DNA of 50,906 bases from Methylacidiphilum caldifontis (GTDB lineage Bacteria; Verrucomicrobiota; Verrucomicrobiia; Methylacidiphilales; CAMAQI01). Positions 26,791-36,159 of the stretch are shown here, piece by piece; within the stretch, counting starts at the first letter, position 1, and the number at the start of each line of letters is the position of its first letter. The notes beneath the pieces were generated by a model. It was not told the origin of the DNA. It did not search any database and was given only the letters and a program-made list of their open reading frames with translations. The stretch spans positions 1 to 50,906 of the forward strand of contig CAMCSM010000006.1 in the NCBI GenBank assembly GCA_945877805.1. The letters run 5' to 3'. Position numbers and translations under genes: made by a program.

Positions 26791-28110
26791 ATGAAATCGA
26801 TTCCCTCTTCCCAAAATACGGCGCTTACTTTTTTATCCGTGCTCTTTCTCCTTGGTGGCTCGCTCTTGATGCTTCCTTTTGGCCGATTGAACGAATTTGG
26901 AACGGTCCCCTATTTTTTACTTGGGGCCCTCGCTCTTTGTTTTGGTTTTGTTTGTAGCTGGCAAATTTCAACCCTCTCCCCAACAGTTTTTTGGGGAGCT
27001 GCAATCCTTACTCGGCTCTTACTCCTTTGGCAGGTTCCTGGAGATGATATCTATCGCTATGTCTGGGAAGGCCGAGTCCTTCTCTCCGGAATCAATCCTT
27101 ATCTTCATGCTCCGGATTCATCGATTTTAGAAGATCTTCGTGATATCGTGTGGAAAGCGGTTGAATACAAAGGCGTCACGGCGATTTATCCGCCGTTGAC
27201 TGAATTTCTCTTTGCATTTTTTTCATTCCTTTCACCGACTCCTTTCTTTTTTAAAGTTATCTTTGCATCTGCCGATATTGCGATTCTTTATCTTCTCACG
27301 CGCGAGTTTGGCCAAAAAGAGGCGCGACTCTATGCGTGGAACCCCCTGGTGATCTATTGCTTTGCAGGAGGGGGACACTACGACAGTCTCTTTATTCTTG
27401 CATTGGTCATTGGGTGGCTTAGCTATCGAAGAGAGAGAATCATTCTTGCGGCCCTTTTCATCGGAGTTGCGATTGCCTTAAAGTGGATTGCACTTTCCCT
27501 CGCTGGTTGGATTCTTTGGCGAACCCTTTATTCAAAACAGTATCGAGCGATCCTCCCGATCCTCCTTGCTCTTTCCTTGCCGATGATCGGCTCATGGGTC
27601 TTATTAAGTTTTTGGACCGATGAATGGACCTTTCAGATCTTCCCGAAACAGTTCACTCAATACGTGAGAAGCGTTGAATTCATTCCCGCAATCGTGGGGC
27701 ATTTCTGGAAGGAGAGTTTAAAACACAATGATTGGTTTCTCATCCCGCTGGCTCTCTTTTGGCTGGTAGCGATCCTTCGGTCACGAAGCTATGAAGGAGC
27801 GATCGAATGGATTTTCTTTCTCCTCTGGATCTTCTCGCCAATGATGCATGCGTGGTACTTTACCTGGATCATTCCCTTTGCGGTTCTCACTCGTAATCGG
27901 GGATCGATTGCGATTTCGATCAGTGGCTTTTTCTATTTCTCGATCCATCACTACTTTCAATCTCCTGGGGGTCAATGGGCACTCCCCCCACAAGTCGCTT
28001 TTTTAATGTGGTCGCCATTGATCTTAGGATTTTTATGGTCGACGGGAACCGTTCCAGTAAATCAGAGTTTACCTCAGAAGAACAGAGAGGGTGTAAATGA
28101 GGTTAGCTGA
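26791..28110 (+). CDS. GT-C fold membrane glycosyltransferase (GT87/DUF2029-like)
   Basis: GDDIYRYVWEG..NPY, IYPP, WNPL, GHYD, H.WY; multiple TM helices. Confidence 0.85.
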   Translation: MKSIPSSQNTALTFLSVLFLLGGSLLMLPFGRLNEFGTVPYFLLGALALCFGFVCSWQISTLSPTVFWGAAILTRLLLLWQVPGDDIYRYVWEGRVLLSGINPYLHAPDSSILEDLRDIVWKAVEYKGVTAIYPPLTEFLFAFFSFLSPTPFFFKVIFASADIAILYLLTREFGQKEARLYAWNPLVIYCFAGGGHYDSLFILALVIGWLSYRRERIILAALFIGVAIALKWIALSLAGWILWRTLYSKQYRAILPILLALSLPMIGSWVLLSFWTDEWTFQIFPKQFTQYVRSVEFIPAIVGHFWKESLKHNDWFLIPLALFWLVAILRSRSYEGAIEWIFFLLWIFSPMMHAWYFTWIIPFAVLTRNRGSIAISISGFFYFSIHHYFQSPGGQWALPPQVAFLMWSPLILGFLWSTGTVPVNQSLPQKNREGVNEVS

Positions 28111-28164: not shown

Positions 28165-28776
28165 ATGAAAATTCGTGCCGCGCTTCTCTTAAAGGCACCG
28201 ATCTTAGGAACGGTCAAAACGCGACTTGCCGCCTCTTTGGGAGGCGAGGAGGCAAAGCGAATCTACATTCAACTCGTGGAGTGGCAGCTTTCACAGATCC
28301 CTGACTCTTGGGGGATTGATATTCACTTTGCCCCCTCAACTGCCCTGAAGCAGATGGAGGAATGGATCTCACCTCTCAAAACCCAAAAGATTTCATTTTT
28401 TTCACAACCGGACGGAGATCTTGGAGTTCGATTAAGCGTAGCACTCCAAAACTCATTCTCCCAAGGAGCAGATCGAGTTGCCCTGATGGGAGGGGATTGT
28501 CCTGAACTAACATTCCACTATCTGCAAATCGCTGAGGAGTTTTCGATTTCATTTGATGCCACCATTGCCCCCGCTCTTGATGGGGGTTATGCTCTCTTGA
28601 TTTTGAATCAATACTACCCCTCACTTTTTCAAAACATTCCATGGAGTACATCCATAGTTTTTTCGGATACCAAGCAGGCAATGAAAAATCTTGGACTCAA
28701 AGTTCATGATCTAGCGGTTGTTGAAGATATTGACGACCTTGATTCATTTCAACGAAGTCGCCTCAGAAGCGGGTGA
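28165..28776 (+). CDS. TIGR04282/DUF2064-type arsenosugar-associated GT-A (CofC-like) protein
   Basis: K.P..G.VKTRLA, Q..GDLG.RL, G.DCP, PA.DGGY, IPWST, DID..D. Confidence 0.9.
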   Translation: MKIRAALLLKAPILGTVKTRLAASLGGEEAKRIYIQLVEWQLSQIPDSWGIDIHFAPSTALKQMEEWISPLKTQKISFFSQPDGDLGVRLSVALQNSFSQGADRVALMGGDCPELTFHYLQIAEEFSISFDATIAPALDGGYALLILNQYYPSLFQNIPWSTSIVFSDTKQAMKNLGLKVHDLAVVEDIDDLDSFQRSRLRSG

Positions 28777-28833: not shown

Positions 28834-29616
28834 TTATGAAAATCGATAGACAAAGTTCTTGAAAGAGACCTTTGCAATTTCTGGGGGCAATGCTTCTAAA
28901 AGACGTTGGAAGAGCAGGCTCCCTTTTTTTAGATTGGCGATTAATTCCTCCATTGAAGTCGGTTCCTCGATGACTCCATTCGCATAATCGATGGAATAAG
29001 CGACGAGGGCGTAAGGAAGTTCCAATTCATTGGCTAAAATCGCCTCTGGACCACAGGTCTGTGAGATAAAATCGCCCCCCGCAGAACGCATCAACTTGAT
29101 CTCTGCCTTTGAGTTAAATCGAGGTCCATTGGCATGGACATAACAACCATTACGAATTATCGGGTACTCTTTTTCCCATATTTGACGAATCACCAAATTC
29201 AAATCGGCATCAAAATAAGAACCTGCAATCAGATGTCCTCGTCCTATTTCTCCTGGCTGATCAAAAAAGGTACAAATTTCCCCTCCAGGAAGCCGGTTCT
29301 CCTCAAAAAGCAAATCGGTGCCCAACATCGGTTCTCCCAACTTCCAATCGGAGCGAAGCAACCCACAAACAGAAGTAGAAAGAATAATCGTCGCCCCTTC
29401 TTGTTTGAGGGCTAATAAATTCGCTCGGTGATTGAGATGATTGGGAAGATATTTGTGATCCTTTCCATGCCGCGGAAGCAACAACGCTTTCTTGCCCCCT
29501 ACTTCCCCACGCAATAAGGTAACGACTCCGTAACGAGTCGCCACGGATTGCTCTTCAAACCCGTCAATTCCATAAAAACCAGATCCAGAAATAAGTCCTA
29601 TCATATTGTCCTTCAA
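28834..29616 (-). CDS. MTAP-family purine nucleoside phosphorylase (divergent)
   Basis: GLISGSG.Y, PRHG..H, N.RAN..AL, GPRF...AE, T..PE, DY. Start TTG 29616 or ATG 29604. Confidence 0.85.
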   Translation of the reverse strand: MKDNMIGLISGSGFYGIDGFEEQSVATRYGVVTLLRGEVGGKKALLLPRHGKDHKYLPNHLNHRANLLALKQEGATIILSTSVCGLLRSDWKLGEPMLGTDLLFEENRLPGGEICTFFDQPGEIGRGHLIAGSYFDADLNLVIRQIWEKEYPIIRNGCYVHANGPRFNSKAEIKLMRSAGGDFISQTCGPEAILANELELPYALVAYSIDYANGVIEEPTSMEELIANLKKGSLLFQRLLEALPPEIAKVSFKNFVYRFS

Positions 29617-29921
29617 ATTTAAGTATTAGATCATATTTATTAAAACTCTAGCCGTTTTAAAGGGTGCAAGAGTAAGGAAAAATCATTTTTTGCATTGTGC
29701 CGAGTTCTTTGGGAAAGAACGAGACGATCGAGCGAAAGCGAGAGGCTGCAGGACGCAGCCAGAGTGAGTCGGGAACACTAATTGCGAAGCAATAAACTAT
29801 ACAAACAGGGTCTAGACGTATGGCGCAGGGGAATGGGGCGCAAATGAACGAATCATCATGGAGTTGGAGAATCTCCCATGACGATTGAGTGATTATTAGG
29901 TTTCGCAAAGGCAGAGAATGA

Positions 29922-30000
29922 CATTGATGTTCAGGATGGGGAGGATAAATTCAAAAACAATTTTCTTTGGTCTTTATCCTGTTCATCCTGTTAATCGATG
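29922..30000. repeat. imperfect 28-bp inverted repeat with 9-nt caggat units
   Basis: cattgatgttcaggatggggaggataaa (29922-29949) versus tttatcctgttcatcctgttaatcgatg (29973-30000). Confidence 0.75.
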
Positions 30001-30036
30001 CAAAATTCCACTCCCTTCGCCCATGCCGCTCCCGCC

Positions 30037-30060
30037 CATGCGCATCGGCGTCAACTTAAG
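30037..30060 (+). repeat. short dispersed repeat cat-N4-gtcaactta, copy 1
   Basis: catgcgcatcggcgtcaacttaag; related copies at 37213 (+) and 42176 (-). Confidence 0.6.
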
Positions 30061-30068
30061 GATAGAGC

Positions 30069-30095
30069 GGGAGGGACCTCGTCCCTCCCGTTTTT
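30069..30095 (+). repeat. REP-like or terminator-like hairpin
   Basis: ggagggac-ctc-gtccctcc followed by cgttttt. Confidence 0.5.
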
Positions 30096-30198
30096 AAATT
30101 CCCCATACGGTTTCAATGTCACTCTATTATGCGAGTCTCAATAGGCCACAGGATTATTTAAAACGCTCTAAAAATAATTTAAATCACTTCTCTTGAGT

Positions 30199-31572
30199 CT
30201 ATCTCGACTTCATTTTCCCCAAGAGCGATAGCCCCTCTTCATGATTGTAACGATTATTAGTAGGACCATTCTCCAAAGAGAGAACCCCACGGGGACAGAC
30301 GGTCGCACAGATACCACATCCGACACAGGAGGCACGGATGATATTTTGACCCCGTTGTGCGTAATGACGGACATCGATCCCCATCTCGCAATATTTCGAA
30401 CAATTTCCACAGGAGATACATTGCGCTCCATTGGTTGTAATCCGGAATCGAGAGTTAAATCGTTGTAATAATCCTAAAAAAGCGGCCATGGGGCAGCCGA
30501 AGCGACACCACATCCGTGTTCCCATCAAGGGATAAAATCCAACCCCAATAACTCCTGAAAATACAGCTCCAATCCCAAAAAGATAAAACCGTCGAATCTG
30601 ATAGACGATCTCTTTCATCGAAGCGGGCAAATAAGGTTCACACCAAAGTAGAACAGTTAAGGAAAATATGAGGGCGAGTACACTATAGATCGACCAACGT
30701 TCGATTTTCCAGGATTTCAACGATTTATCGGAAAGCTGTCGCCACGAATCCCCCATAGTATTCGCCAATCCTCCACACCCACAAACCCACGAGCAATACC
30801 ATCGTTTACCAAAATAATAGGTTAATACGGGAGTGGCTAAGAATGTTCCACAAATAAACCAGCCGGCGATAAAATAGCCCAATCCTCCCGAATGAAATAA
30901 ATGCATCACGGTAGAGGGAAACAGTTTGTCATAAGCCAAAGGCCAAAAATAGGTAAGATAAACCTCCGGTTGATTAAACTTCACGCAGATGGCAGGAAAA
31001 AGATAAGCAAAGATGAGTTGTGCAAAAATAATCACACTCGTTCGGACGATATGGTATCGATTATGACGATACTTTGCGATCGCCTTAGCTCCCATCAAAG
31101 TCGTGAGAATCGTATATACCGTTCCATAAACAAACCATTCATCGGCCGGCTTTCCTTGAAGGAATTGACTTAATCCATCATGAAGTCGGGTCAATCCCTC
31201 TAAATACTGAGGGAACCAATAAATAATAATGTAGAAACCGGTGAAAACAATTCCCAGCATCCAGCCCCAAGCCCCCCGAGCGGTTAAACTATCCGTTGTT
31301 TTTCCTTGGTTTCGAACTCCAGGTCGATCCTTCAGATGTTTCGAAAGAGCAAAGTAACCTCCCCCACCGATTGCGAGGGCCCAGGAAATATTAAACCAGA
31401 GGTTCTTCAGCGTTTCCGAAGTTGAGCCATTCACCGCGATCAAAGAAAGGGCTAAAAGCATCGATCCGATCCCCATCGCTGTCAGGGCAATCTTTTCGCT
31501 GATTCTAAGCCGTGGCCCGTGATGGGCAATTGAATGACTTTCATAGGCAAGGTTGGCGGTGATATCACTCAT
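30199..31572 (-). CDS. membrane-bound polyferredoxin (NapH/RdxA-like 4Fe-4S protein)
   Basis: Multiple TM helices, CSWVCGCG and CRFGCP motifs, two CxxCxxCxxxC clusters at the C-terminus. Confidence 0.9.
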   Translation of the reverse strand: MSDITANLAYESHSIAHHGPRLRISEKIALTAMGIGSMLLALSLIAVNGSTSETLKNLWFNISWALAIGGGGYFALSKHLKDRPGVRNQGKTTDSLTARGAWGWMLGIVFTGFYIIIYWFPQYLEGLTRLHDGLSQFLQGKPADEWFVYGTVYTILTTLMGAKAIAKYRHNRYHIVRTSVIIFAQLIFAYLFPAICVKFNQPEVYLTYFWPLAYDKLFPSTVMHLFHSGGLGYFIAGWFICGTFLATPVLTYYFGKRWYCSWVCGCGGLANTMGDSWRQLSDKSLKSWKIERWSIYSVLALIFSLTVLLWCEPYLPASMKEIVYQIRRFYLFGIGAVFSGVIGVGFYPLMGTRMWCRFGCPMAAFLGLLQRFNSRFRITTNGAQCISCGNCSKYCEMGIDVRHYAQRGQNIIRASCVGCGICATVCPRGVLSLENGPTNNRYNHEEGLSLLGKMKSR

Positions 31573-31591: not shown

Positions 31592-32944
31592 TTATTTTAA
31601 AATCTTTGCAAAGAACTTCGAAAAAAGTCCCTTTTTGGTTTTCAGTTCGACCGGTTGATCTGGATAAAGAAGATTAAAGGCACTGATGATTTCGATCTCA
31701 TATTGACTATAAAACTCCGGATCGAAATTTGCCGCCCCTAAATGAGTCAATACCTCATGAATAGTCTTTTTCTCTAAAATCCATTGCTCCCAAACTTGAT
31801 GACGATGACGAATCCCAAAGACATTAACTCCTAAAACAGCTCCCAACTTTTCTTCAAAATTGATCCGCACCGACTTATTTCCCTCGGGATGCTCCCAGTA
31901 AAAACTTTTCTCCCCCTCTTTCAACTTGGGCATCACCCACCCATAGGTCTGATATTCAATATCGAAAAATTTTGCCGAATTAAACCAAATCCCTGGATCA
32001 TACTCAGCAAGGTCACCACATATATTCGCCGCAAGCCGCTCGCCTTGTATTTTTCCGGTGTACCAAACCTGTTCAACAGGTCGTCGGCCTTCGGGGGCCT
32101 CGCGATGCTGCGCACAATCTCCTCCCGCCCAAATATCAGGAACTGAGGTTTTCAGGAAACGATCAACCAAAATACCTCGATCACATTCAATTCCTGAGGC
32201 CTTAACCATCTCAATCTGAGGACTGACTCCGGCGGTTAAAAAGACCATCTCGCATGCTATTTCCTCTCCCGAAAGAGTTTGTATGGCTCGGACTCGACCT
32301 TCTCCGTCGCTTAAAATCTCTTTGAGTCCCGTCTCTAATCGAAGATCGACTCCGTGGGCTTGAATCTCTCGATTGATCATCGCCGATTCCCCTATCGGTA
32401 ATACAGACCCCCAAAAGGTTTTCTCACGAACTAAAAAAGTGACCTGGATGTTACGAGTTAAAAGCATCTCGGCGACCTCAACCCCGATTAAGCCACCGCC
32501 AACCAAAACTGCTCGTTTAGCCCCTTTCGCATTTCGCTCCATCATTTCCAGATCTTGATAGGAATAAAGACCTTGAACCCCCTCAAGATCCTCCCCTGGC
32601 CAGCCAAAACGGTTCGGTTTCGATCCGGTCGCTAAAATGAGGGTGTCATACTTTAATGATTCCCCATTTTTAAAAAGAAGTTGTTTTTGTTGAGAATCGA
32701 TCGAATGAACCCATCCCCGTTTGAGATCGATACGATTCTTGGCCCAAAAATCATCGGGGTAAGGTTTTGTATCCTCATAGCGCATATCTCCCATGAAGAT
32801 ATACATCAGGGCTGTCCGCGAAAAATGGTGCTCAGTCTCTCCGGAAACCACCGTAATTCGATGATTGGAACGCTTACGCAGCGTACGGGCTGCGGTGATT
32901 CCCGTGATTCCATTCCCTAAAATAACAATATGACGTTCGCTCAT
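31592..32944 (-). CDS. NAD(P)/FAD-dependent oxidoreductase
   Basis: GNGITG (FAD), ATGS, GGGLIGVE (NAD), GDCA. Confidence 0.92.
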   Translation of the reverse strand: MSERHIVILGNGITGITAARTLRKRSNHRITVVSGETEHHFSRTALMYIFMGDMRYEDTKPYPDDFWAKNRIDLKRGWVHSIDSQQKQLLFKNGESLKYDTLILATGSKPNRFGWPGEDLEGVQGLYSYQDLEMMERNAKGAKRAVLVGGGLIGVEVAEMLLTRNIQVTFLVREKTFWGSVLPIGESAMINREIQAHGVDLRLETGLKEILSDGEGRVRAIQTLSGEEIACEMVFLTAGVSPQIEMVKASGIECDRGILVDRFLKTSVPDIWAGGDCAQHREAPEGRRPVEQVWYTGKIQGERLAANICGDLAEYDPGIWFNSAKFFDIEYQTYGWVMPKLKEGEKSFYWEHPEGNKSVRINFEEKLGAVLGVNVFGIRHRHQVWEQWILEKKTIHEVLTHLGAANFDPEFYSQYEIEIISAFNLLYPDQPVELKTKKGLFSKFFAKILK

Positions 32945-33129: not shown

Positions 33130-34275
33130 ATGAAAAACGAAACTGTTGTCAAAAACCGTTATGCCGCCGCCTCTAAAGCTCAAGAAGCACAACTCTGCTG
33201 CCCGGTTGAGTACAATAAAGAGTACTTAAAAATTATTCCCACCGAGGTGATTGAACGGGATTACGGCTGTGGAGATCCCTCTCAATATGTGAAAAAGGGT
33301 GAAACCGTTCTCGATCTCGGCTCTGGAACCGGAAAAATCTGTTTTATCGCATCCCAAGTCGTCGGCCCCACCGGAAAGGTCATCGGAGTCGATATGACCG
33401 ATGATATGCTTGAAGTCGCCCGTCGCAATGCCCCGGTTGTCGCTCAATCGATCGGCTATGCCAATGTCGAGTTCCGTAAGGGACGAATTCAAGATCTCGC
33501 CCTTGATCTCGAAATCCTTGACGCGGAGCTCAAAAAACGTCCAATCTCCGATGTCACCTCTTTTCTAGCTGCCGATGAGCTAGCGGAAGAGCTCCGGGTA
33601 AAATCCCCACTCGTTGCTTCGAATTCAATCGATGTTGTCGTCTCCAACTGCGTTCTGAATCTCGTCGATTCCCACGCTAAACCGCAATTATTTCAAGAGA
33701 TTTTTAGAACCCTTAAAATCGGCGGTCGGGCCGTGATCTCGGATATCGTTGCCGATGAACTCGTCCCCGAAGAGCTTCAAAATGATCCAGAGCTTTGGAG
33801 CGGTTGTATTTCCGGAGCTCTCACCGAAGAGGGATTCCTCAAAGCTTTTGCGGATGCTGGATTTCATGGAATCGAGATCCTCAAACTCGATCAAAAACCG
33901 TGGCAAACCGTCGCTGGAATCGAGTTTCGCTCGATGACAATTCAAGCCTTTAAAGGGAAAATCGGTCCCTGTTTCGAACGGAATCAAGCGGTGATCTATC
34001 GCGGCCCCTTTAAAGAGATTTTAGATGATGATGGACATCGCATGGAGCGCGGGGTTCGTTATGCCGTCTGCGATAAAACCTTTCAGCTCTATCGTAAATC
34101 GCCGTATGCCTCCTATTTTGAATTCATCGAACCGATGGAGCCGATTCCTCTCGATGAAGCTCAACCGTTCGACTGTAGCAGGACCGCCCACCGTCATCCT
34201 CAGGAAACTAAGGGAATGAACTATCAAGTGACCACCGCACCCTCGGAGTGCTGCGGTACAACGAGCTGTTGTTAG
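33130..34275 (+). CDS. arsM: arsenite S-adenosylmethionine methyltransferase-like protein with Cys-rich C-terminal extension
   Basis: LCCP, YGCG.P, DLGSGTG, SNCVLNL, W.GCISGA (ArsM Cys set); ends ECCGTTSCC; in an operon with arsS. Confidence 0.85.
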   Translation: MKNETVVKNRYAAASKAQEAQLCCPVEYNKEYLKIIPTEVIERDYGCGDPSQYVKKGETVLDLGSGTGKICFIASQVVGPTGKVIGVDMTDDMLEVARRNAPVVAQSIGYANVEFRKGRIQDLALDLEILDAELKKRPISDVTSFLAADELAEELRVKSPLVASNSIDVVVSNCVLNLVDSHAKPQLFQEIFRTLKIGGRAVISDIVADELVPEELQNDPELWSGCISGALTEEGFLKAFADAGFHGIEILKLDQKPWQTVAGIEFRSMTIQAFKGKIGPCFERNQAVIYRGPFKEILDDDGHRMERGVRYAVCDKTFQLYRKSPYASYFEFIEPMEPIPLDEAQPFDCSRTAHRHPQETKGMNYQVTTAPSECCGTTSCC

Positions 34276-34280
34276 AAGAG

Positions 34281-35030
34281 ATGATTCCTCCCCCTGATCA
34301 CAAAAAAGAACTCGATCCCTCGAGTTTTGCGGCGTTCTCTGATCGTACCATGGTGATCATTCCGGCTTATAACGAGGAGGCCTGTATCAGTTCAATCGTC
34401 AAACGGCTTTATGATCGTGGATTCTCTCATCTTCGAGTCGTTGACAATGGGAGTACCGATGCCACCGCTCCTCTTGCCCGTGAAGCGGGAGCAGAGGTCA
34501 TTTCGGATCCACGAAGAGGCTACGGACTCGCCTGTTGGCTGGGAGGAGTCAACCTGCCTCAAGGAATTGAATGGCTCCTCTATTGCAACGCAGATGCAAG
34601 CGATGATTTTGAAGCTTACGACTCGTTTGCTCAACTCGCCGACTATCACGACCTGATTCTCGGAGCTCGCACCTCTCCCGAGGATCGACTTCAGATGACC
34701 GTTCCACAGCGATTTGGAAATTGGCTTGCCCCCTTTTTAATTTCTCTTTTTTGGGGAGAGTCTTTTTCTGATTTAGGGCCTCAACGAGCGATCCGAGTCT
34801 CGGCTTATCAAAAAATCGATATGCAAGATCGTGGTTTTGGATGGACCGTCGAGATGCAAGTCCGGGCCGTCCAGGAAAAACTGCGGATCATTGAAATCCC
34901 CGTTCATACCTTTCCTCGTGCAGCAGGGGTCTCAAAAATCTCTGGAAATCTCAAAGGAAGCCTCCAAGCGGGCGTGATTATTTTAACAACGATCGCTCAA
35001 CTGATTTTTCAATCTGCCAAAAAAAAATAA
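34281..35030 (+). CDS. GT2 glycosyltransferase (polyprenol-phosphate glycosyltransferase-like)
   Basis: IIPAYNEE, VDNGSTD, GYG.A, NADASD, DLGP.RAIR, GWTVEMQ, SKISG. Start ATG 34281. Confidence 0.9.
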   Translation: MIPPPDHKKELDPSSFAAFSDRTMVIIPAYNEEACISSIVKRLYDRGFSHLRVVDNGSTDATAPLAREAGAEVISDPRRGYGLACWLGGVNLPQGIEWLLYCNADASDDFEAYDSFAQLADYHDLILGARTSPEDRLQMTVPQRFGNWLAPFLISLFWGESFSDLGPQRAIRVSAYQKIDMQDRGFGWTVEMQVRAVQEKLRIIEIPVHTFPRAAGVSKISGNLKGSLQAGVIILTTIAQLIFQSAKKK

Positions 35031-35037
35031 CGCCATT

Positions 35038-36159
35038 ATGATAACCCTCATTATTTTCTCACTCGTACTCATTCTCGCATTCATGAACGGCGCCAATGAC
35101 AATTTCAAAGGAGTCTCAACTCTTTATGGCAGTAAAGTCACTACCTATAAACAAGCCCTCACCTGGGCCTCCATCACCACTTTTCTCGGAAGCCTGACTT
35201 CGCTTTTCCTTGCTCAAGCCTTAATCGTTCGATTTTCAGGAAAAGGACTCGTCGATGAATTAGTCTCTACCTCTCCCTACTTTGTTATTGCTGTAGCCTT
35301 AGGAACGATCATTACGCTCGTTCTCGCCACTCGCTTCGGCTTTCCTATTTCCACAACCCATGCTCTTTTAGGATCGCTCATCGGAGTAGGACTCATTTCA
35401 AATTCTTCTCTCTTTAATCTCACCCTTCTCTCTCAAAAATTTATTTTCCCCCTTCTCTTCACTCCTATCCTCTCCGCACTTCTAGCTTCGCTTGTTTTTG
35501 GACTCACCTCCATTTTTAAAAACTTCCTTCTTCCGTCTGAGCCTCATTGCATTTGTCTTCATTCACGCATCCCTTTTTGGGCGCTCTCCCCCTGTTGTCA
35601 AAATTCCGCTCTTCCGCATCCATCGATCGATCTGCAAATCGAATCTCCCTCCCAATGCAATTCAATAAGTGCCCCCCCCTTAGCCCGAATCGTACTCCCC
35701 TCTCTCATCGATTCTCTTCACTTTATCAGCGCAGGAGCCGTCTGTTTTGCTCGCGGACTCAATGACACTCCAAAAATAATGGGGCTACTACTCTTATCCT
35801 CCGCGCTTTCCATTCAACACTCCATCATGATGATCGCCATCGCAATGGTGATGGGAGGGATTATAGGAGGAAGAAAAGTCGCTGAAACAACCAGTCAACG
35901 CGTGACCTCCATGAATCCTCGCGAAGGATTATCCGCAAATCTTTCGACTGCCCTTCTCGTCACCACCGCAAGTCTCCATGGTCTTCCTGCAAGCACGACG
36001 CATGTGACCATCGGAGGGCTCATCGGAGTAGGCTCCATTACAAAAAAAATGCACTGGAAACCGGTGCTTGGAATTTTAACTTCTTGGATCCTCACACTTC
36101 CTTGCTCTCTCTTTTTTGCTGCCCTGAGCTTTTATCTCCTTCAAAAAAAACATTTATGA
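35038..36159 (+). CDS. PiT-family inorganic phosphate transporter
   Basis: NGANDNFKG, PISTTHA, GLND.PK, P.STTH; Cys-rich central insertion. Confidence 0.92.
   Translation: MITLIIFSLVLILAFMNGANDNFKGVSTLYGSKVTTYKQALTWASITTFLGSLTSLFLAQALIVRFSGKGLVDELVSTSPYFVIAVALGTIITLVLATRFGFPISTTHALLGSLIGVGLISNSSLFNLTLLSQKFIFPLLFTPILSALLASLVFGLTSIFKNFLLPSEPHCICLHSRIPFWALSPCCQNSALPHPSIDLQIESPSQCNSISAPPLARIVLPSLIDSLHFISAGAVCFARGLNDTPKIMGLLLLSSALSIQHSIMMIAIAMVMGGIIGGRKVAETTSQRVTSMNPREGLSANLSTALLVTTASLHGLPASTTHVTIGGLIGVGSITKKMHWKPVLGILTSWILTLPCSLFFAALSFYLLQKKHL

Follow-up and report, generated by a model that had tools for sequence, protein, structure and literature searches.

In the biosynthesis of the hopanoid side chain and of menaquinone, one of the radical S-adenosylmethionine (SAM) enzymes (HpnH and MqnE, respectively) adds SAM's 5'-deoxyadenosyl group to a substrate, and an enzyme of the PNP_UDP_1 superfamily (HpnG and futalosine hydrolase, respectively) removes the purine, which opens the ribose to further steps. 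For arsenosugars, passages of two papers state that the radical SAM enzyme ArsS makes DDMAA (5'-deoxy-5'-dimethylarsinoyl-adenosine), whose adenine 'can then be removed', and these passages name no enzyme for the removal. Here we describe a 50,906-nucleotide stretch of a Methylacidiphilum caldifontis genome (contig CAMCSM010000006.1; hereafter, the window), which encodes on its minus strand, at 28834..29616, a phosphorylase with the fold of methylthioadenosine (MTA) phosphorylase, MTAP. We name this protein PNPx. Within the MTAP family it forms a distinct variant of wide spread, bound in its genomic setting to clusters of the ArsS type. Its best-supported reading is that of a DDMAA phosphorylase, to which we give about even chances; what it acts on, what it yields and which steps follow are inferred.

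An earlier note on this DNA had read the gene as an MTAP-family phosphorylase that keeps the phosphate-binding motifs (GSG, RHG, GP.F) but carries SQTCGPE for the usual (G/N)MT..PE and IDYAN for the usual TDYD, and the searches and alignments that follow bear out all of this. PNPx matches Pfam PNP_UDP_1 (PF01048) at 3.2e-25 (89.3 bits, cut-off 25.1), and among solved chains MTAPs come closest (2a8y, 9.4e-28; human 1cb0, 3.3e-25). An AlphaFold model (alignment of 21 rows; mean predicted local distance difference test score 90.5) superposes on human MTAP with a template modeling (TM) score of 0.85 over about 258 columns, and MTAPs head its best 500 Foldseek matches (TM 0.80–0.85). Score and fold together place PNPx in the PNP_UDP_1 superfamily. 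The top NCBIfam model is MTAP TIGR01694, at 155.8 bits, under the equivalog cut-off of 274.85; none of the 11 NCBIfam models listed reaches its cut-off with PNPx, and the 10 clade members scanned also remain under that of TIGR01694 (114.9–163.5 bits). Names given to clade proteins by the sequence sources are generic, and no NCBIfam model names a PNPx phosphorylase. No fusion of PNPx to a partner was found at E <= 1e-30 among proteins of 449–2000 aa, which is weak evidence. Because an AAGGA lies 5 nt upstream of ATG 29604, and the database starts its gene model there (P0002, 256 aa), this codon is likelier to be the true start than TTG 29616.

Active-site motifs were read from a residue-by-residue alignment to human MTAP, with PNPx numbered on the 260-aa form. 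The GSG motif comprises residues 11–13 (S12 aligned with T18), RHG residues 49–51 (R49-H50 with R60-H61), and GPRF residues 164–167 (F167 with F177); SQTCGPE (185–191) stands opposite human N195-M196-T197-T-V-P-E, and IDYAN (209–213) opposite T219-D220-Y221-D222-C223. Also retained are S82 (T93), H128 (H137), T187 (T197) and D210 (D220), so that S12, R49, H50, S82, T187 and D210 reproduce the phosphate site and catalytic Asp of MTAP (T18, R60, H61, T93, T197, D220). The ribose, 5' and N6 contacts (N195, M196, D222, L279), in contrast, are replaced by S185, Q186, A212 and a C-terminal F..F.YRF. Altered in all are N195-M196 to S185-Q186, T219 to I209, S178 to N168, and D222-C223-W224 to A212-N213-G214, with A94 to V83 and V236 to L225.

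These differences are near-fixed when 80 PNPx clade rows are set against 23 canonical, MTAP-like rows taken from the same phylum, with the reservations that the 80 loci were gathered with patterns built from the motifs, which makes the constancy partly one of construction, and that L085, L086, L088, L089 and L090 duplicate L006, L015, L023, L013 and L031, all five of which have an ArsS, either nearby or at another place in the genome. Position 186 is Q in 80/80 clade rows and M in 23/23 canonical rows; position 214 is G in 80/80 and W in 23/23; position 185 is S in 80/80 against G or N. Asn is found at position 213 in 79/80 rows (canonical C or S) and at position 168 in 79/80 (S in 23/23), Ala at position 212 in 78/80 (D in 23/23), and Thr at position 220 in 74/80 (V in 22/23). 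R49, H50, T187, D210, H128 and F167 are kept in 74–80 of the 80 rows (R49 and D210 in 80, H50 and T187 in 78) and are identical in the canonical rows. Further marks of the clade are an insert, N-R-L..G..C..F (N107 in 80/80, C115 in 75/80), the pair R126-G127 ahead of the shared His, and the invariant C-terminal F..F.YRF (R258 in 78/80), where MTAP has L279 of the neighboring subunit. The SQT/DYAN changes are not chance variants; they define the clade.

Solved MTAPs indicate what the changed positions do. In the passages of a Schistosoma MTAP study that concern substrate binding (PMC5147791), adenine is bound by D230 and D232 (human D220 and D222), phosphate by S12, R54, H55, A88 and T207, and ribose or methylthioribose by N205, M206, D232, Q289, A88, H131 and V246. 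There, Q289 is the equivalent of human L279 and is contributed by the neighboring subunit, and the change of L279 to Gln permits a contact to the 5'-OH and the use of adenosine. Mapped on the sites given in these passages, the phosphate site and the first Asp of PNPx are intact, and only the His of the seven ribose/5' residues is unchanged: three replacements are non-conservative (S185, Q186, A212), two are conservative (V83, L225), and the C-terminal contributor is unalignable, with the new invariant motif in its place. Such a pattern would be expected of an enzyme in which the chemistry is kept and the 5'-substituent is changed. Judged from sequence, PNPx is best explained as a putative N-ribosyl phosphorylase that depends on phosphate and has the trimeric MTAP fold (the trimer is predicted), with remodeled ribose, 5'-substituent and N6 contacts.

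A quick IQ-TREE phylogeny of the 103 rows (no bootstraps, with the phylum's own MTAPs as sole outgroup) parts the 80 PNPx from the 23 canonical rows at a branch with a Shimodaira-Hasegawa-like approximate likelihood ratio (SH-aLRT) value of 100. Subclades within PNPx mostly follow phyla (Verrucomicrobiota with Kiritimatiellota, Aminicenantes, Actinomycetota, Acidobacteriota and Bacillota), and the window protein pairs with that of L005 (81% identity), a record labeled Akkermansiaceae. An independent check on the clade, which does not rely on exact motifs, comes from a profile search of 401 genomes of one phylum. The scores are bimodal: seven genomes score 300 bits or more, and the highest score below them is 139.5 bits. 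Only G288 among the seven has a second match to the clade profile.

One clade member has an unusual reading frame. In locus L026, whose title is Candidatus Gracilibacteria, stops interrupt the frames of both PNPx and ArsS under translation table 11, and P0085, the database translation from this locus, has W at three otherwise invariant Gly (for example, WPRF for GPRF). The pattern is that expected if TGA encodes Gly (code 25), in what would be a candidate-phyla-radiation genome that still has ArsS and PNPx.

The distribution of PNPx follows that of ArsS. Among the 401 genomes, ArsS occurs in 6/7 with PNPx and in 13/394 without it, where the six belong to 5 genera and represent few independent events. 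In the 80 PNPx loci, which are drawn from many phyla, neighbors within 10 kb were counted with our own hidden Markov models (HMMs) and score floors: ArsS is present in 34 loci, TIGR04282 in 42, TIGR04283 in 37, and any of the three in 60. Where at least 3 kb of sequence is available on both sides of PNPx, 38/47 loci have at least one of them. TIGR04282 lies no more than 100 bp from PNPx on the same strand in 29 loci and on the opposite strand in 4. Of the 46 genomes in which no ArsS lies near PNPx, 17 have one over the cut-off elsewhere, for a total of 51/80, and the remaining genomes without a found ArsS are metagenome-assembled genomes (MAGs) of unstated completeness. PNPx is thus co-located with ArsS-type clusters as marked by TIGR04167, TIGR04282 and/or TIGR04283. 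The earlier note had further placed the gene inside an arsS cluster, spoken of an SQT/DYAN clade, proposed to test whether this clade tracks arsS, and named the enzyme a candidate DDMAA phosphorylase. The placement holds, with ArsS, an ArsM-type methyltransferase and TIGR04282 all within 8 kb of PNPx; the clade is a separate branch of the MTAP family by the SH-aLRT value and the bimodal scores; the tracking is confirmed in the direction from PNPx to ArsS; and the candidate function is partly supported.

Gene order varies among ten loci of other lineages annotated with NCBIfam. Examples are ArsS-ArsM-PNPx-TIGR04282 (L031), TIGR04283-TIGR04282-PNPx-ArsM-PHO4-ArsS (L072), ArsS-CysK-PNPx-TIGR04282::TIGR04283 (L065), and PNPx-ArsS-DUF547-VTT-FAD reductase-TIGR04282::TIGR04283 (L050). 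The Aminicenantes genome G018, described as 'complete', was considered as a case of PNPx without ArsS and rejected: a C-terminal ArsS fragment abuts a 100-N gap (locus L208, C1:569000-580000), with DUF547, VTT and a TIGR04282::TIGR04283 fusion after it. In this MAG, deposited as a 'chromosome', the gap comes immediately behind a Lon-protease-like frame and severs the N-terminal part of ArsS; the cut has the look of a join made in assembly rather than of a biological truncation.

The seventh PNPx genome of the phylum sample, G416 (locus L209), has no ArsS; an Rv1681-like radical SAM protein, ArsM, TIGR04282 and TIGR04283 flank its PNPx. Rv1681-like proteins (NF049973, 96–267 bits, below cut-off) are found near PNPx in L209, L032, L034, L043, L081 and L084, fused to ArsM in L032 and next to ArsM in L209, and they may constitute another family, besides ArsS, of enzymes that adenosylate arsenic. 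Six weak 'ArsS' matches to our own HMM (33–67 bits) were discounted, as the five scanned are such Rv1681-like proteins (L054 is unscanned). Genes of the VTT/DedA type occur in 28/80 PNPx loci and DUF547 genes in 15/80. Both kinds of protein recur in ArsS clusters (L023, L031, L050, L055, L078, L116, L117, L119, L123, L208), and L065 additionally has UptA-like and flippase-like genes; these neighbors hint at a polyprenyl-phosphate-linked step.

Around PNPx in the window (Table 1), ArsS lies 6.5 kb away, in a plus-strand row of ArsM, GT2, PHO4 and ArsS that runs from 3.5 to 7.5 kb. The ATG of ArsS overlaps the PHO4 stop as ATGA (36156-36159), and the ArsM and GT2 frames overlap or abut (34248-34275), so the four genes look like one translationally coupled operon. 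The TIGR04282 gene is convergent with PNPx, their ends 57 bp apart, and the only solved relative of its product is 3cgx, a 'putative nucleotide-diphospho-sugar transferase'. The membrane protein beyond it has tblastn relatives in other verrucomicrobial ArsS clusters (L005, L012, L020, L031, L116, L119, L123). Upstream of PNPx, about 580 bp hold no convincing gene, and PNPx is therefore probably transcribed from its own promoter. An 83-aa open reading frame (ORF) in this gap (29657..29908) has no Pfam or NCBIfam match, a search for riboswitches and known RNAs gave only two Rfam matches at chance level (E 0.38 and 0.81), and scans for promoters and terminators returned no excess of sites over shuffled sequence; the stop of the NapH-like gene is followed by a G+C-rich hairpin. 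The NapH-like and FAD reductase-type genes are separate in the window and fused (750–790 aa) in L031, L116, L117 and L123, and the pair may be an electron-supply or arsenical-reductase module.

Table 1. Position and support of PNPx, its neighbors in the window, and a conserved gene order in Aminicenantes.
Feature	Position or loci	Strand	Support
Multi-span membrane protein, weak GT87 (GT-C type)	26791..28110	+	Pfam GT87 9.3e-05, below cut-off
TIGR04282 (DUF2064, CofC-like) 'arsenosugar biosynthesis glycosyltransferase'	28165..28776	+	150.3 bits, cut-off 134; Pfam DUF2064
PNPx ORF, longest form	28834..29616	-	Start TTG 29616, 260 aa
PNPx, MTAP-fold nucleoside phosphorylase, SQT.GPE / D.ANGV clade	28834..29604	-	ATG 29604, 256 aa
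Gap of ~580 bp, no convincing gene	29617..30198		Between NapH-like stop and PNPx
NapH-like membrane ferredoxin (4Fe-4S)	30199..31572	-	Pfam/NCBIfam
Pyridine-nucleotide-disulfide-family FAD oxidoreductase, upstream of NapH-like gene	31592..32944	-	Pyr_redox_2 1.9e-52
ArsM-type arsenite methyltransferase, Cys-rich C-terminus	33130..34275	+	NF040538 341 bits, NF008823 204.9 bits, both below cut-offs
GT2 glycosyltransferase, AglJ / dolichyl-phosphate-hexose-transferase-like	34248..35030	+	Weak TIGR04283 match
PHO4/PiT-family phosphate (or arsenate) transporter	35038..36159	+	PF01384 2.7e-62
ArsS radical SAM enzyme	36156..37151	+	TIGR04167 440.3 bits, cut-off 300
PNPx, then RpiB, Rpe and/or transaldolase/PGI fusion, in conserved order (14 Aminicenantes loci)	L035-L041, L047, L051, L054, L060, L064, L066, L067		

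As a DDMAA phosphorylase, PNPx would split the ArsS product with phosphate to adenine and arseno-ribose-1-phosphate. The latter could then be taken up by the CofC-like TIGR04282 protein as its substrate, to be activated with a nucleotidyl group, and a GT2 transferase would act next: TIGR04283 in most clusters, and in the window perhaps the AglJ-like GT2 with the GT-C-like membrane protein in its place. Somewhat more tentatively, then, PNPx may be a dedicated arsenonucleoside phosphorylase that forms, with ArsS, TIGR04282 and GT2, a nucleotide-sugar-style route, from DDMAA through arseno-ribose-1-phosphate and a nucleoside-diphosphate (NDP)-arseno-ribose to a lipid- or glycerol-linked arsenosugar. 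The predicted sugar-1-phosphate would explain why a CofC-like homolog of nucleotidyltransferases is the most frequent neighbor of PNPx. The clade would provide a concrete candidate enzyme after the ArsS step, recognizable by Q186, A212-N213-G214, N168 and the C-terminal YRF. We found no literature linking an MTAP/PNP enzyme, DUF2064 or TIGR04282 to DDMAA, where much of the arsenic literature is behind subscription.

Several observations weigh against this reading, beginning with the view from ArsS. In the phylum sample, 13/19 ArsS genomes lack PNPx, and in those 13 no PNP_UDP_1 gene lies within 4.8 kb of ArsS; a non-orthologous nucleosidase of this family beside ArsS was thereby rejected as well over that distance. 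We also examined the best 80 of at least 590 metagenome loci found with an ArsS alignment. PNPx is present in 0/80 of them, a zero weakened by the fact that only 23/80 have at least 3 kb on both sides, and canonical MTAP in 1/80, while 20 loci have TIGR04282, 27 have TIGR04283 and 25 have ArsM; no MtnN-like ORF was found in these 80 loci. The idea of PNPx as a regular neighbor of ArsS was dropped on this count. One locus without PNPx, L119, resembles the window (ArsM-PHO4-TIGR04282::GT2-ArsS). PNPx is dependent on the presence of an ArsS-type cluster, but such clusters can do without PNPx, which is an optional add-on. Because most ArsS organisms lack it, PNPx is not universal and cannot be what removes adenine in arsenosugar synthesis generally, algae and cyanobacteria included. 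In ArsS clusters without PNPx, a housekeeping MtnN or MTAP presumably does the adenine removal. The partly constructed constancy of the motifs counts on the same side, as does the loss of D222, which removes one contact to adenine N6 and thereby leaves the base preference uncertain.

The remaining points on that side concern what else PNPx might do, and they favor its main rival: a broad phosphorylase of 5'-deoxyadenosine, MTA and other 5'-substituted adenosines that clears inhibitory by-products of SAM made by the radical SAM and methyltransferase neighbors, with DDMAA at most one of several substrates. We consider this unlikely as the full account, but it is a live rival, and the two readings are not mutually exclusive. 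PNPx belongs to the MTAP family with its catalytic kit intact. It is the only PNP_UDP_1 gene in the relative G295 (99% complete), and MtnN is over the cut-off in 0/5 other PNPx genomes tested; in these, PNPx may also be needed to dispose of MTA and 5'-deoxyadenosine. Six of the seven PNPx genomes have no second clade-profile match. Behind PNPx in 14 Aminicenantes loci come RpiB, Rpe and/or Tal/PGI genes, with all three present in only some of the loci, an arrangement that points to ordinary pentose-phosphate salvage. A housekeeping enzyme, however, would not be expected to be so confined to genomes with ArsS clusters (6/7 against 13/394) or to abut TIGR04282 in 29/80 loci, and neither MTA nor 5'-deoxyadenosine would necessitate a strict remodeling of the ribose, 5' and N6 contacts. 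Moreover, ArsS incorporates the 5'-deoxyadenosyl group in its product, as stated in the passages on DDMAA.

The window genome itself (G000, 96% complete) also speaks against a housekeeping role. It already has MtnN (L002, 259.1 bits, cut-off 169), and no canonical MTAP was found in it; MtnA (TIGR00512) has no match at E <= 1e-5, an absence that in a draft of this completeness is not proof. Since MtnN is present, PNPx is not needed there for MTA removal, and since no MtnA was found, methylthioribose (MTR)-1-phosphate would have no salvage route. The same genome carries a third, weak PNP_UDP_1 gene (L004, contig C66:3334-3588), which is HpnG-like at 58.3 bits (cut-off 187.1).

Less probable still is that PNPx acts on a different or later nucleoside, such as an arsenical adenosine in reduced or thiolated form, or what an Rv1681-like radical SAM enzyme with no relation to arsenic would make, and passes its product to a lipid-linked sugar pathway. 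In L209, L034 and L043 the gene close to PNPx is Rv1681-like rather than ArsS, and in L032, L081 and L084 such a gene lies within about 4 kb; the near-invariant C115 sits in the clade-specific insert; and the VTT/DedA-type and DUF547 neighbors (28/80 and 15/80 loci), together with the UptA-like gene of L065, would suit such a pathway. Yet two of the Rv1681-like cases are tied to ArsM, by fusion in L032 and by adjacency in L209, and true ArsS is the commoner partner (34/80 loci). We regard it as very improbable that PNPx activates arsenate, by arsenolysis of a nucleoside to ribose-1-arsenate that is then reduced by thiols as for mammalian PNP: such reduction is described in vitro in passages of a review, which call its role in vivo unknown (PMC12608789), and a PHO4-type transporter is present in the window cluster, but PHO4 adjoins PNPx in only 1/80 loci (L072; tblastn with the window protein), and the tight pairing with TIGR04282 and ArsS would be left unexplained.

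Of the known systems, MTAP/MtnP (TIGR01694; human 1cb0, Sulfolobus 2a8y, Schistosoma 4l5a) is closest to PNPx in structure. The two have in common the fold (TM 0.85, approximately 28–32% identity), the phosphate-binding residues at the T18, R60, H61, T93 and T197 positions, the equivalent of Asp220, and the equivalent of His137, which in MTAP comes from the neighboring subunit. Unlike MTAP, PNPx has Q for M196, S for N195, A for D222, G for W224 and N for S178, as well as the NRL..G..C..F insert and the C-terminal F..F.YRF, and its partners are ArsS, TIGR04282 and TIGR04283, not genes of methionine salvage. It therefore differs from the MTAP equivalog (EC 2.4.2.28) in score, in the ribose/5'/N6 residues and in the MtnA partner. 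A shift of substrate preference within the MTAP family is seen in S-methyl-5'-thioinosine phosphorylase (NF006599; Pseudomonas 3ozb), which is among the best models and chains for PNPx (116.6 bits, cut-off 223). Compared with the NCBIfam 'arsenosugar' set (TIGR04167, TIGR04169, TIGR04282, TIGR04283, NF038099), PNPx is located within such clusters, frequently in translational coupling with TIGR04282, but it is not named in the set, and most ArsM/ArsS clusters lack it.

The pathway logic proposed for ArsS and PNPx is like that of HpnH/HpnG and MqnE/futalosine hydrolase. HpnG and futalosine hydrolase belong to the MtnN/HpnG-like branch, whereas PNPx belongs to the MTAP branch; PNPx has no match to TIGR03468 or TIGR03664 at E <= 1e-5, and the MtnN of the window genome matches both weakly. 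The acceptors of HpnH and MqnE are carbon atoms, and that of ArsS is arsenic. If PNPx is a DDMAA phosphorylase, this would be the third independent use of radical SAM adenosylation followed by purine removal by an enzyme of the PNP superfamily, and the first in which such a phosphorylase conserves the energy of the glycosidic bond for the transfer of an arsenic sugar.

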